DNA of 64,000 bases from assembly GCF_013122565.1 (NCBI RefSeq), contig NZ_CP053258.1; one strand, 5' to 3'. This document shows positions 52,901-58,900 of the stretch, piece after piece. The position numbers are program-made. Positions within the stretch are counted from its first letter, which is position 1; each line of letters opens with the position of its first letter. Source of the DNA: Escherichia coli (GTDB lineage: Bacteria > Pseudomonadota > Gammaproteobacteria > Enterobacterales > Enterobacteriaceae).

Positions 52901-55900
52901 GTGCGACGGCGAACACGCTGCGGGCGAGGGTGACCGATGCGTTCGGGAATGCACTTGCCGGACAGACGGTCAGCGTGATGGCAGGTAACGGCGCAACGGT
53001 CACTCCGACTGTCATCACAGGGCCGGACGGCACGGTGGAAATCAGTGTTACCAGTCAGACGGCGGGCACCAGTTCGGTCACCGCCAGCATCAACAACAGC
53101 ACCCTGAGCCGGAACGTGACGTTTATCGCGGATGTCAGCACGGCGAAGATCGCTGATCTGGTGGTCATTAAGGACGGCTCAGTAGCAGACGGTTCGACGG
53201 CGAATACGCTGCGGGCGAGGGTGACCGATGCGTTCGGCAATGCGCTTGCCGGGCAGACGGTCAGCGTGTTGGCGGACAACGGTGCAACGGTCGCTTCGAC
53301 GGTGACCACAAAGCCGGACGGCACGGTGGAGATCTCTGTTACCAGTCAGACGGCGGGAGTCAGTACAGTCACCGCCAGCATCAACAACAGCAGCCTGAGC
53401 CAGAACGTGACGTTTATCGCTGATATCAGCACGGCGCAGATCGCGGATCTGGTGGTGACGCAGGACGGCTCAGTGGCAGACGGCGCGACGGCGAACACGC
53501 TGCGGGTGAAGGTCACCGATGCTAACGGTAATACGCTTGCCGGGCAGACGGTCAGCGTATCGGCGGGCAACAGCGCAATGGTTGCCCCGACGGTCACCAC
53601 AAAGCCGGACGGTACGGTGGAGATCTCTGTCACCAGCCAGACGGCGGGAGTTAGCGCAGTCACAGCAACCATCAACAGCAGCACCCTGAGCCAGAACGTC
53701 ACCTTTGTACCGGGTGACGCATCGCAGCTCACTTCAACTGTTGAAACAAATAAGTCTAACTACACGGTTGGAGAGACCATCACCATCACGGTAACGCTCC
53801 GGGATGCGTTCGATAATCTGGTAACCGGTGCAGCTTCACAGTTAGCCGCTAATGGTGTGCTGAAGGTGGCTGGCACCGACCCGTCAGAAACGGGAAGCTG
53901 GGTTGAATCAGGTGGCGTGTATACCACAACCCGAATGGCGACGATTGCCGGTAACGATCAGCACGCCAACCTGCAATTGCAGTCGTGGAGTGTTGGCGTA
54001 ACGTCAGATCGCTATGACATACAGTCCGGTTCTCCGGCGCAAGCCACATCAACTATCGCCACGGATAAAAACGCATACACCGCTGGCGAGACTATAACCG
54101 TCGCCGTGACGCTGAAAGATGCGCACGGTAACCTGGTTGAAGGGGGCGAGTCCTTACTGTCTGGTGATAACGTAACAGTGGAAGGAGCCGTACGTTCAGG
54201 AGAGTGGTCTGAAACTGCCGGTGTTTATACTGCTACATGGTCGGCGCAAATGGCGGGAGACTCTCACCACGCGACGCTGACGTTGCCCGAGTGGGGCAGC
54301 AGTAAACAATCAGAGAGTTATTCCATCCACAGTGGTGCTCCGGTGCAGGCAAATTCTGCTATCAGGACAGATAAATCGGCATATATCGCCGGGGAGCCAT
54401 TAACTGTCACAATAACGTTGCGGGATGAGTTTGGTAACCCTGCTTTAGGGCTGACATCAGAAGTCATCGAGTCTTATATCGATAATTTCGCGGTAGGTGG
54501 CGCAACTTCCGATTCTATGCAGTGGGTCGAGCAGAATAATGGTGAATATACCATTGTCTGGACAGCATGGGTTGCCGAGGAAAATCTGGTTGCCAGTCTG
54601 AAATTAAAAACATGGGCAATGGAGATTAAGTCCTCGTTATACGGAATACAACCAGGTGCGGCGGCAAAAACTCAATCCACGATTGTCGCGGACAAAACGA
54701 TATATATTGCTGGGGATAGCATAACGGTGACCGTTGTTCTTAAAGATGCCCAGGATAACTTTATTACTGATGGCGTTGTTCAGCTTAATGAGGAAAACGT
54801 ACAAGTCAGGAATGCGGATCCTATCCAGGGCAATAATTGGGTTTACAATGGCAATGGTATATATCAAAGACAGTATATGGCGCATTTTGCGGAAGCGAAC
54901 TTGAATGCGCAATTGAAGATGACTGGTTGGAGCGATGCCAATTATTCAAATAGCTACATGATTAAACCAGGTGAAGTAAGTATGCTTCGTTCACAGCTTC
55001 GTATACGCGAAGTTTTAGTGGTAGCTGGGGCGGATATACCTGTTAGTGTTTTATTATCTGATGAATTTGGTAATCCGGTTGATAACGGTCTGGAATTGCT
55101 GACAGAGGATGCGGTGTTCTTACAAAATGTGGAAAAGAAAGAGGGGACTAAATGGGTGTCAGTGGGTGAAGGCAGATATGAGCGTACCTATAGGGCCTAC
55201 AAAGAAGGAGAAAACTTAAACTCATATCTACATATTAATGGTTGGTATGTAAACGGGCAACCGTCTTATACCATCCTACCTTTTGTGGAAGTCGAGTCGC
55301 TGAGTGTTAATGGTGCAAAATTCAGGGCGGCAGATGGTTTTCCAGAAACAGGGTTTGATGGTGCAAAATTCACGCTGTTACTAACCCATAATATGAAAAA
55401 TACGGATTATAATTGGACGGCTGGGATTTATGGAATTAATGTTGACAGTAATGGAGAAGTAACATTATCTCTGCTAATAAGAAGTGAAGTTACTATTACC
55501 GGGAAACCCAAGAATGGTAAAGGGAATGATGTTGTATTTAAATTCAAGATTAAAAAATGGTTTACTAGTTTAGGTGCTGCCAGTAGTAATACCTGGGATA
55601 TCATAAATACTTCATGTAGCTATGGTCAAATGCCGTCATCTTTAGAATTAGCGCAGCGGCCAAGCGGTGGGGTGGTACCGCGAAAAGTAGGTACATTGTG
55701 GGGAGAATATGGTAATTTGAAAACTTATGGGAACGCTTTTAGCGGTACGGATTATTGGACAACCACTCAGCTCTTAGGGGTACACGAGAAATTTAATCCT
55801 GAAACTGGTATATCAGAGCTTGGGACAGGAAAGTCTTCTGGCTTGTGTGTAGAGTATTATTAACGAAGTAATCACTAAATTGCCCTGCATCAGCAGGGCA

Positions 55901-58900
55901 ATTTAGCTTCGTTTTTACGCAGAAGTACGCATCACACCAATAGTATTAAATTCATTTTTCACACTGAGCAAACGGGGGTCATGAATTAAAACATTTGACC
56001 ATAAATCATTCTCTTTAATTAATTGTTGCCAGCGCTTTTCATATTCTTTTTTACCATACACAGTGTAAATTAACGGCAAAATCACACCATTGATTTTGTT
56101 GGTGTTAATATTTGCCAGTAACTTCATGATGTCATTTTTTATAGATGCGCCATAGATCAGAAGTTTCGTATAAAGCGAGTTGACACAGGTGTAATCAAGA
56201 CCATGTTCAGGTTCAAGTTTAAGCAATAAACTTTTGGCTTTGTCATTATGTCCTTTCAGTGCCATGAACATAGCCAGAATAGATGTAATAATTGGATTGT
56301 TACAGGTGTTTTGACTGTTAAGATTTAATGCAAAAGATATCGCGTTATCGAGGGGGGATGTGTAATAAAGTATAATTAATTTAAGAATGCTTATGCCCAT
56401 TTTATTGGGTTCAAGAGCAATGCTTTTTTCTATTAAATTAAATGCTCTTGCAAGGTCGCCGTTCAAAAAACATAGCAGCGACTGATAATAATAAACGTCT
56501 GGCGAATTAGGTTTGAGTAAATGTGCTTGTTTAAATAGCACATTAGACACTGAATGTTCATCTTTTAGCCCACTGATTAAACCCAGTAAACCCAATGCCT
56601 GAGAATTTGAAGGGTTAATTTCCAGAGCCTTTTCAATGGAGGTTACTGCCGTAGTTATTGCTTGTTTTTGTTCACTGATTCCAAGGAGTGCTAATGATAT
56701 ATGGCATTCCGCCAGGCAACAGTAGGGCAAGGTATTTTGCGGTTGCGTACTCACACAATCTCTAAATATTACTAATGCTCGTTTCAAACTTTCTGGTGTA
56801 TAACGGTACATTTCCATCCTGCCATTCATATACATAACAGCAGAATCCAGAGATGGCATTTGTTGTGTATTAATAGATTTAAAATTAATGTTGGGTATTT
56901 TTTCAATAAGAATATTAATTACTTGTGATAATAATACGGAAAGAGGATTATCGGGGTTGAAATCAATACTTTGATGATCAATCAATTTATGCGTTCTGGC
57001 ATGGATTAATTCAATAAATAAACGCCAGTTTTTACCATAGTGAACGACCTGACCCATAATATAATATTCTGGGCCTGTTTTATTGATAAACTGATGGATG
57101 GTGGAGAAATCACTGGCCTCATTCGTTACCGAAGCGGGTAAAATATCTAAACCACAAAAAGCATATTTTGAAAGGCCCTGGACCAGTTCGTAATGGAGTT
57201 TTAGAACATTGATCGAACCTTCAGTACGAAAGGGAAAAACGGCAAGAGTGGTGGTCGACTTTATCGGTTCATTATCGGTTACAATCACAATGGGGACAGT
57301 AAAACGGTATCCACGACCATAGACCGTTTCGATATACTTACACTGTTTATTCTCATGCAAAAGTTTACGCAATGCATAAATACACCGTGTTAAAGATTCA
57401 TCACTAGCAACACTCGCGCTCCAGACCTTATCGATAATCTCTTCTTTGCTAACAATTTCACCGTCAGCATTAAGTAATAGAATGATAACGCCAAGTTCTT
57501 TGGGTGGAATATGATATTCTTTGTTTTTGAATAATAATATTCCATTGTTTTTTAATACAAAGTCGCCAAATATATATTGTTGTGTATTATTTTTTCCATG
57601 TTGCAGTTGCATAGAACGCTCCTTCCATTTTCTCTATTCATAGTATTAATTTGATCTGTCTAAAATAAAGTATTGGCAGAATTGCTCTATCAAAAAACGC
57701 TCATTTTGTAAGATTGTGATGAAAAAATGAATGAAAGGTGATGCTTAATAATATGAAACGCTGGTCCCATTTTACGGGACCAGATAGTGGACGATAATTG
57801 TAGGTGTTACTTAATCAGAAACGTAAATAATCTTTCGCTGAATCAAACAACGCAGTAATGGTTGAAGATAATAATTTGATAATCGTATCGTAGGTAGAGT
57901 TGGCTGTACTGTATTTAGTCGTTATAACCTGCACGTCGGTTTTCATGTTTTCTGCCTGGCTGTTATAACCCGCCAGCCATGCCTGGTATTCAGCCGTGCT
58001 TATTTCGTAGCCGGTGAATTCTTTAGATATATTTTTTTCCTTCCCTTTATCGTCCCTGTGTACCATTGAGTCTGAAGACTGACTCATACTGTCAATAATC
58101 TGAGGGTTGGGAATAATAACATACAGACCGCTACCTTGCGGTTCAACTTCGACAATCGGAGAAGGTGTGCGGTGTTTGGGATCGGGTGGAATTACCGGAA
58201 GTCCTAAAGCGGCACACCATTTTTCTGCTTCTTCCAGTGGAACACCAATTTTATCAGCAGGTGCCGGAGGGTATAAAACATAGTCTGGATTATAATGATA
58301 ATGGAAATCACCATTAGGATATTTATCGATATAATAAAAATGCATCAAGGCTTTTTGGAATGCATTGACATCAAAAACTATCGCATCGCCTTTTTTATTA
58401 GAGTGAGTCCATTTTCCCATATTACTTTGGATATGTTCACTGAAGTCCTGCCAGTATGCACTCATTATCTCAACGCTATTTGCATAGATTTCTAGGTAGT
58501 CGCTACCGAGCACACTCATCAAATCAGCAATATCACTGCATATATATTTATCACTTTTAAATTCGCTTGAACTACTGGCCGTTAAAGTACTGCTGGTTGC
58601 TGAACTTCTCATTTCAGGCGCAAAACTATCTAAAGAAGCGATAGCGTGGGTTAAGATTCCTTTGGTCGTTGCCATTGCACTTGGCCCGGTTGTGTTGTCA
58701 GCAACGTTAGCCAGGGTTTTTCTCACAGAGTTATGCAGGGTCAATATTTTAGCGGGATCCTTTAACTTTCCGTCAATAGTATTAACATTTTCTGTAAGCT
58801 GCAGAACGTTTTTTATCAGCAAATAACTTTCGTGTAAGAGCGCAGATCCTTTCTCTGACAGGTTCTCAGTTGGGAAATTTCTGAGCATGTTTTTAACGAA

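Follow-up and report, generated by a model that had tools for sequence, protein, structure and literature searches.

The stem-loop in the short gap between the adhesin gene air/iatC and the regulator gene eilA of Escherichia coli is probably the Rho-independent terminator of air/iatC on the plus strand, and would act more weakly on the eilA strand. The element is an ordinary, previously undescribed member of a well-known class. This reading starts from four observations: the hairpin structure, the low probability of such a repeat by chance, the conservation of the element and the unequal tails on the two strands. They were made in a 64-kb stretch of DNA (the window, contig NZ_CP053258.1) and in alleles of the same locus.

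The adhesin gene is 10.8 kb long, encodes a protein with an Invasin_D4 domain near its C-terminus and ends with a TAA stop codon at 55861-55863. eilA, whose product contains Trans_reg_C and TPR domains, is located on the minus strand and has its stop codon at 55917-55915. RefSeq loci of E. coli with 97-98.6% identity label the adhesin ORF as 'inverse autotransporter adhesin EaeX/Air' or 'IatC' and the regulator ORF as 'HilA family transcriptional regulator EilA'. The gene names given in the initial annotation, the convergent arrangement of air (plus) and eilA (minus) and the gap of exactly 51 bp (55864-55914) are thus borne out by the ORFs, the RefSeq annotation and the domains. According to PMC4210603, which cites Sheikh et al. 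2006, EilA is an activator of eaeX/air; the same paper reports poor expression of eilA and air in standard media and names DMEM/LB with glucose as conditions for the expression of eilA. eilA was found in 730 of 5426 genomes, and the eip island is present in 13% of E. coli genomes. The features of the locus are as follows.

45022-55863, plus strand: air/eaeX/iatC, giant inverse-autotransporter adhesin gene, 3613 aa (ORF, RefSeq annotation, Invasin_D4 domain)
55862-55868: left arm of the outer helix, AACGAAG (minimum-free-energy structures)
55869-55874: 6-nt bulge, TAATCA, at the junction of outer helix and main stem (minimum-free-energy structures)
55875-55879: outer A/T-rich segment of the left arm, CTAAA (inverted-repeat sequence)
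55880-55888: core left arm, TTGCCCTGC, invariant (without a variable site in 61 alleles)
55889-55892: loop, ATCA; TTCA or ATAT in other alleles (allele comparison)
55893-55901: core right arm, GCAGGGCAA, invariant (allele comparison)
55902-55916, plus strand: U-rich tail of the plus-strand RNA, TTTAGCTTCGTTTTT (terminator scan, allele comparison)
55862-55879, minus strand: tail of the minus-strand RNA after the core stem, UUUAGUGAUUACUUCGUU, moderately U-rich and unconserved (T-tail score)
55915-57612, minus strand: eilA, HilA-family regulator, 565 aa (ORF, translation, domains, RefSeq annotation)

The 14-bp perfect inverted repeat that had been noted in the gap is present at 55875-55888 and 55893-55906, where CTAAATTGCCCTGC atca GCAGGGCAATTTAG forms two 14-nt arms of 100% complementarity around the 4-nt loop ATCA. 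On the plus strand, the segment CTAAA serves as the A-tract, and the UUUAG tail of the minus-strand RNA is templated by it; likewise, positions 55902-55906 of the plus-strand tail double as the outer part of the right arm, and positions 55915-55916 fall within the eilA stop codon. The hairpin starts 11 nt past the stop codon of air and 8 nt past that of eilA. An outer 7-bp helix, in which AACGAAG pairs with CTTCGTT (55907-55913), is stacked beyond the 6-nt bulge, so that the structure takes up the entire gap between the two stop codons. The left arm of this helix shares two bases with the end of the air stop codon and is probably dispensable, since it is deleted in one metagenomic allele (L056) and weakened in others. 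Within the bulge, position 55873 is polymorphic (C/T).

Folding of the gap yields -30.0 kcal/mol for the plus-strand RNA (z = -8.4) and -30.4 kcal/mol for the minus-strand RNA (z = -7.3), and none of the 200 shuffles on each strand folds as well. The 9-bp core alone has about -16 kcal/mol and the full 14-bp stem -23 to -25 kcal/mol; the stable G+C-rich stem-loop of an intrinsic terminator is thus present. The repeat is the longest perfect short-loop inverted repeat of the window, for which first-order Markov simulations give a mean of 0.025 repeats of at least 14 bp. A chance origin of the hairpin is excluded.

The G+C-rich core is the same in all 61 alleles, in contrast to the variable spacers, loop and outer A/T pairs. 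In the 52 alleles with the same register, none of the 18 core sites varies compared to 10 of 33 sites in the remaining gap (Fisher p = 0.009); as a comparison for the gap polymorphism, 23 of 141 third codon positions of eilA are variable. The count for the 3' coding region of air (181/349) is unreliable, as upstream indels shift the register in some loci, and was left unused. Position 55906 is a T in 51 of the 52 comparable alleles, which leaves 13 pairs; the 14th pair, C55875-G55906, is peculiar to the lineage of this window. Strain GPEC1446 carries this allele, with an identical 53-bp gap. At position 55878, 33 of the 52 alleles have an A and 19 a G. The A>G change of the commonest allele, which has CTAGA in the left arm and the loop TTCA, retains a G-U pair in the plus-strand RNA and produces a C-A mismatch in the minus-strand RNA. 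Compensatory changes were found at 0 of 13 pairs in a comparison of 12 distinct alleles, and the conservation of the stem could therefore merely reflect the low divergence of the island. Since no deeper-diverged loci came back, this count is uninformative and no evidence against the stem: the cross-species search for EilA in genome contigs yielded only two loci, both 99% identical, which are E. coli-like DNA within MAGs labelled Collinsella and Clostridium. Two further loci, H66 and H68, were considered as divergent and rejected, as they are additional second-cassette copies with the same core.

Roughly 12% of the eilA-carrying genomes possess a different adhesin C-terminal cassette, in which the segment CTAAA at 55875-55879 is entirely replaced. 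The homology of the two adhesin 3' cassettes resumes at 55879/55880, the exact left edge of the hairpin core; the left core arm is present in both cassette types and the sequence further to the left cannot be aligned. It is very improbable that the hairpin is a fortuitous, functionless palindrome, which has been conserved through the youth of the island: the lack of covariation and the overall identity of the alleles of 96-99% would fit this explanation, but it has to contend with the low chance expectation, with a core that is free of variable sites within a variable gap, and with a left arm that is shared by both cassettes next to a flank that is not. Equally improbable is a role at the DNA level, as a site for a dimeric protein, as a cruciform or as a recombination junction bounding the adhesin C-terminal cassette. 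The palindrome is perfect and folds as DNA (-18.6 kcal/mol, z = -8.7), and the cassette homology resumes precisely at the edge of the core; however, the element is single-copy, is confined to the 730 eilA-carrying genomes, once in each, and is flanked by the 3' ends of two genes, with every promoter at a long distance. Moreover, a cassette boundary at the end of a gene is expected whatever the hairpin does, and neither a recombinase nor a repeat partner was found nearby.

On the strand of the adhesin gene, the core is directly followed by a U-rich tract, and a consensus scan calls a terminator on this strand only; the minus strand fails. In all alleles, 10 of the 15 nt after the core are U despite variable distal bases, and the hairpin is therefore best read as a sound intrinsic terminator of air/iatC. 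As a U-tract, however, the tail is of moderate quality and not a strong one, because it is interrupted: UUUAG follows right after the core, with the tail reading UUUAGCUUCGUUUUU, and a run of five U, which is lineage-specific and overlaps the eilA stop codon, is located 5 nt past the 14-bp stem. Transcripts that end at intrinsic terminators have their 3' ends 7-9 nt past the stem, independently of Rho. The hairpin resembles E. coli intrinsic terminators such as lambda tR2 in its 9-bp G+C-rich stem, which is extended to 14 bp with A-U pairs, its 4-nt loop, the U-rich tail right after the G+C-rich stem and its site just past a stop codon. It differs in the interrupted U-tract, where the known terminators have 7-9 consecutive U, and in that the predicted hairpin is unusually long and lies 11 and 8 nt from stop codons. 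Reporter experiments show that a terminator this close to a stop codon is suppressed by the ribosome located there, and with translation coupled to transcription the efficiency of tR2 at such distances is strongly reduced (PMC4824070). No mapping of transcript 3' ends of the air/eilA locus was found in the literature.

Three other perfect hairpins of the window, downstream of gyrB at 3231-3259, at 27418 and at 33600, have an A-stem-T build and show that this is the normal terminator style locally. Like the air/eilA hairpin, they are perfect inverted repeats (of 12-13 bp) with loops of 3-4 nt and flanking A/T runs, and the one at 3231 sits just past a long ORF. In contrast to the air/eilA hairpin, their A/T runs consist of four or three uninterrupted bases at the stem ends, and they belong to the core genome and not to the eip island. 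A REP/BIME or another dispersed palindrome was considered and rejected, as there is one site per genome in only 730 of 5426 genomes; an apparent second site in each genome comes from the palindrome itself, which also matches on the reverse strand. No second copy of the element was found within the 64-kb window, and an Rfam 15 scan of 55000-58000 (E <= 10) gave no match on the hairpin and two chance-level matches elsewhere.

The eilA strand is less uniform. The tail after the core is UUUAGUGAU in this window versus UCUAGUGAU in the commonest allele; in the RNA, the window has UUUAGUGAUUAC and the commonest allele UCUAG at the beginning of the tail. In the second-cassette alleles, the minus-strand tail reads AAAUAUAAG or UAACAUAAA and is without a U-tract. 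T-tail scores after the core, which use the d'Aubenton-Carafa weighting and are meant for comparing tails with each other and not for calibrated classification, are 2.88 (plus) and 2.86 (minus) in this window; on the minus strand, they amount to 1.67 in the commonest allele and to 0.3-1.0 in the second-cassette alleles. As these alleles keep the core and the plus-strand tail and lose the A-tract, they would possess a terminator of the classical one-way type, which acts for the adhesin gene.

Hairpins between convergent genes of E. coli fix transcript ends in both directions, according to a study that reports on Ju et al. 2019 (10.1101/2022.10.23.513370). Between air and eilA there is likewise a single hairpin, which folds on both strands. 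Similar to the bidirectional terminators of Ju et al. 2019 and Wang et al., the element consists of one palindrome in a short convergent gap with a hairpin on both RNAs and a mirrored A-tract and U-tract; however, the mirrored stretch comprises only three A/U, and part of the population has lost it. Those terminators are defined by overlapping 3' ends, while the air/eilA element is known here from its sequence. A fully symmetric bidirectional intrinsic terminator, which would act with comparable efficiency on air and eilA and insulate both genes from each other as in the reading of the initial annotation, is rather unlikely. The hairpin energy is equal on both strands, both tails start with UUUAG in this window with nearly the same T-tail scores, and the convergent site fits the class of Ju et al. 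2019 in the summary of 10.1101/2022.10.23.513370. On the other hand, the terminator call is limited to the plus strand, the minus-strand tail begins with UCUAG in the commonest allele and is gone in the second-cassette alleles while the plus-strand tail is always kept, and the eilA stop codon is just 8 nt from the stem (PMC4824070). For this window, termination in both directions by the canonical mechanism is plausible, but it is not a conserved feature, because the minus-strand tail is weaker and is absent in about 12% of the eilA-carrying genomes. The 'shared terminator' of the initial annotation is thus a reasonable description of this allele and holds in its anatomy and, for the plus strand, in the terminator call and the U-rich tail; its eilA half is weakened by a tail that is weak or absent and by the missing call. 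That transcripts end here, and with which efficiency on each strand, is inferred, as are equal strength in both directions and the 'insulation' of the two transcripts.

It is conceivable, if somewhat doubtful, that on the eilA side the hairpin itself does not release the polymerase but acts as a pause site at which converging polymerases collide, or that the eilA transcripts end further on through Rho on the untranslated air antisense, with the hairpin mainly shielding mature 3' ends from exonucleases. Very stable hairpins block 3'-to-5' exonucleases, and a hairpin of -30 kcal/mol is of this type; the weak or absent U-tract on the minus strand also fits. The evidence at hand cannot separate pausing from termination, however, and collisions may be rare, because eilA and air are reported to be poorly expressed in standard media (PMC4210603). 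This explanation is also compatible with intrinsic termination on the plus strand. Less probable still is a strictly one-sided terminator, which stops air and lets eilA transcripts read through into the lectin-cap-coding end of air; this is proposed because the hairpin lies 8 nt past the eilA stop codon and has no conserved U-tract on that strand. If true, the eilA mRNA would be extended by a long 3' UTR that is antisense to the gene which EilA controls, and air transcription that leaks past the hairpin would be antisense to eilA. Either could link the virulence regulator and the adhesin that it activates in a feedback, through transcriptional interference or cleavage by RNase III, and the two adhesin cassette types would differ in the strength of this feedback.

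For the preferred reading, a terminator of air/iatC that is weaker for eilA, the working part would be the 9-bp G+C-rich stem followed directly by the U-rich tail, and in the lineage of this window three to five extra A-U/C-G pairs and the outer 7-bp helix would extend the hairpin across the gap. The eilA-strand RNA is predicted to form the same hairpin followed by UUUAGUGAUUAC, because the 5' A-tract (CUAAA) mirrors the start of the U-tract, so that the same DNA could also pause the polymerases that transcribe eilA and, with lower efficiency, terminate them. The advantage is probably that polymerases leaving the adhesin gene are kept from an antisense run through eilA; the reverse protection of air from polymerases leaving eilA would be achieved to a lesser degree.

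The hairpin likely marks the 3' ends of air/iatC and eilA, and its significance lies mostly in annotation. air/iatC and eilA are EAEC/ExPEC-associated genes, which serve as epidemiological markers, and the typing of air/iatC alleles can make use of the hairpin as the exact end of the exchangeable lectin-cap cassette. The arrangement suggests that an antisense extension of the adhesin transcript into the gene of its own activator is prevented, and the asymmetry between strands and alleles offers a small natural test of what a 'bidirectional' terminator needs on each side.

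The element between the convergent genes air and eilA most likely terminates transcription of the 10.8-kb adhesin gene intrinsically and acts, more weakly, on eilA transcripts as well. The relevant features are:

45022-55863, + strand: adhesin ORF air/eaeX/iatC, 3613 aa
55915-57612, - strand: regulator ORF eilA, 565 aa
55875-55888 and 55893-55906: inverted-repeat arms, 14 nt, 100% complementary, spaced 4 nt (repeat finder)

The ORF bounds place the gap at exactly 55864-55914 (51 bp), and the perfect 14-bp inverted repeat that the initial annotation had reported there was confirmed. 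Read directly, the + strand runs ...tat tat TAA cgaagtaatca CTAAATTGCCCTGC atca GCAGGGCAATTTAG cttcgttt TTA cgc... across the gap. Of 5426 complete E. coli genomes, 730 had a single match to a 1.2-kb query spanning it, in most cases with 95-99% identity. The matching RefSeq genomes annotate the adhesin as 'inverse autotransporter adhesin EaeX/Air' or 'IatC' and the regulator as 'HilA family transcriptional regulator EilA'; Pfam detects Invasin_D4 close to the C-terminal end of the adhesin, and in EilA it detects Trans_reg_C and TPR repeats. The gene names and convergent layout originally assigned from the sequence are therefore correct. Genes for SipD/IpaD-like and SctE-like proteins follow downstream of eilA, and the island, which lies after nepI and ~45 kb from dnaA, is the eip island known from EAEC 042. 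Its composition is a sharp mosaic: G+C content is 58-62% in the central adhesin gene (48000-54000), where long antisense ORFs follow one another on the - strand (49902-53732), and 35-40% on the eilA/eip side. The neighbouring core genes uhpC, uhpT, adeD, adeQ and nepI (36000-45000) reach a best identity of 98.6% among the 5426 complete RefSeq genomes, so that the lineage of the window is poorly represented there.

A whole-window scan identified the hairpin as the longest perfect inverted repeat with a 3-10-nt loop, and 40 first-order Markov simulations gave a mean of 0.025 expected repeats of at least 14 bp. A 71-nt segment around the gap folds with -30.0 kcal/mol (z = -8.4) as + strand RNA and with -30.4 kcal/mol (z = -7.3) as - strand RNA; 0 of 200 shuffles folded as well. 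Both folds include an outer 7-bp helix, AACGAAG (55862-55868) with CTTCGTT (55907-55913), beyond a 6-nt bulge, and the structure therefore spans from within the air stop codon to 2 bases short of the eilA stop codon. No family match to the hairpin was found in Rfam, and no second copy in the window, where the sole other match has 3 mismatches and lies within the adhesin gene. A dispersed repeat was rejected, since a 53-bp gap query matched the same 730 genomes only; its 'two places' per genome reflect the palindrome matching its own opposite strand.

A metagenome scan anchored at the invariant eilA 3' end yielded 55 loci; adding the RefSeq loci and the window brings the total to 61 sequences, in which the gap has 14 distinct forms. 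The G+C-rich core of the stem, TTGCCCTGC/GCAGGGCAA, shows no variation among them apart from one contig (2x coverage) that lacks a single base; the loop (ATCA, TTCA or ATAT) and the outer A/T pairs vary. The perfect 14-bp form CTAAA/TTTAG is found in the window alone within this sample and in about six RefSeq genomes; CTAAA/TTTAT leaves a 13-bp stem, and the commonest allele carries CTAGA/TTTAT. In 19 of 52 alleles, 55878 A>G (outer stem) and 55889 A>T (loop) co-occur, forming the commonest gap haplotype. Across these 52 alleles, compared in identical register, 0/18 core sites are variable versus 10/33 elsewhere in the gap (Fisher p = 0.009); of the third codon positions in eilA, 23/141 are variable. 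Chance as the origin of the hairpin is excluded by the simulations and these polymorphism counts. RNAalifold on 12 distinct alleles found compensatory changes in 0 of 13 consensus pairs; in these alignments the stem is thus more conserved than its surroundings, but without covariation proof of RNA structure.

Several loci deviate. In L056, a food metagenome contig, a 14-nt deletion of TATTATTAACGAAG shifts the adhesin stop codon and removes the left arm of the outer helix, leaving the main hairpin intact; given the low coverage (2.9x), it may be an assembly error. In L003 (E. coli EC200461, 1900-2270), the adhesin gene 3' end is interrupted by an additional stretch of ~157 bases whose annotation is that of a tripartite tricarboxylate transporter permease fragment, and the hairpin and eilA beyond are intact. 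Among GTDB species-representative genomes, eilA was found only in L005 and L006, 99% identical E. coli-like contigs in MAGs labelled Collinsella sp. and Clostridium sp.; contamination during binning is almost certainly the reason.

The 3' (C-terminal) cassette of Air/IatC comes in two very different types. The last ~150 aa after Invasin_D4 are 28-38% identical between the window type and the N3/E700025 type, which is present in ~86 of the 730 eilA-carrying RefSeq genomes, versus 80-98% in the upstream repeats. This region is presumed to be a lectin-like cap; in the surface adhesin IatC, a C-type lectin domain forms the cap (PMC6714894). When window 55400-55879 was compared with L001 3500-4000 and L002 1560-2060, two loci with the alternative cassette, DNA homology restarted precisely where the core begins on its left side (55879/55880). 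The left arm of the core is kept in both types and the sequence further left is unalignable, which implies that the stem is under selection or that a recombination junction lies at its foot. A DNA-level role as protein site, cruciform or recombination junction would suit this boundary and the palindrome itself (DNA fold -18.6 kcal/mol), but the element is single-copy and is located between two 3' ends, both of which speak against it.

The two strands of the hairpin are not equivalent. The consensus scan called a terminator on the + strand only, and the tails, measured from the core, are as follows.

Tails of the hairpin: U count in 15 nt and T-tail score (for relative comparison only)
+ strand, window allele: UUUAGCUUCGUUUUU, U 10/15, score 2.88
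+ strand, most alleles: UUUAUAUUCGUUAUU, U 10/15, score 3.41
minus strand, window allele: UUUAGUGAUUACUUC, U 8/15, score 2.86
minus strand, commonest allele: UCUAGUGAUUACUUC, U 7/15, score 1.67
minus strand, alternative cassette, L002 type: AAAUAUAAGUAACAU, U 4/15, score 0.32
minus strand, alternative cassette, L001 type: UAACAUAAAUAAUAU, U 5/15, score 1.04

The + strand keeps 10 U in 15 nt in all alleles (scores 2.9-3.4). The T5 run used by the scan (55912-55916) is lineage-specific and overlaps the eilA stop codon; elsewhere it reads TTATT or TTCTT. In the commonest allele, 55878 A>G leaves a G-U pair in + strand RNA and creates a C-A mismatch in - strand RNA, which points toward the same asymmetry, although as a single inherited event it is weak evidence. 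Of the shared terminator proposed initially, the terminator anatomy and the predicted + strand activity are supported, but the - strand was not called and its U-tail is not conserved. A fully symmetric bidirectional intrinsic terminator is possible for the window allele, but is not a conserved property.

Three perfect 12-13-bp hairpins in the window share the A-run/stem/T-run build:

3231-3259: after an 805-aa ORF (681-3098; gyrB by position in the DSM 103246 record)
27418-27445: perfect hairpin
33600-33626: perfect hairpin

They look like ordinary terminators, and A-stem-T is the usual local terminator style.

On the + strand, the hairpin would terminate adhesin gene transcription intrinsically, and the mirrored A-tract (CUAAA) of the window lineage would provide the weaker activity on eilA transcripts. 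On the eilA side, its main role may be that of a site where polymerases pause or collide, in line with a proposal for elements that separate convergent E. coli genes (bioRxiv 10.1101/2022.10.23.513370, summarising Ju et al. 2019); it may also protect the 3' end, with Rho completing termination on untranslated air antisense. That the terminator is one-sided and eilA transcripts continue through it antisense into air, or vice versa, with regulator-target feedback as the result, is improbable. The 14-bp stem starts 11 nt past the air stop codon and 8 nt past that of eilA, the core 16 and 13 nt, respectively. The tR2 terminator reaches full efficiency only >~27-30 nt past a stop codon, since closer to it the hairpin is hindered from folding by the terminating ribosome (PMC4824070). 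By analogy, this suggests that under tight translation coupling neither direction would be maximally efficient, the eilA side being more exposed.

Terminator hairpins between convergent genes are textbook elements; the air/eilA hairpin is apparently an undescribed, ordinary member of this known kind, and its measurements hold no surprise for the specialist. Its purpose would be to keep polymerases exiting air from antisense transcription of eilA, the gene of air's activator.
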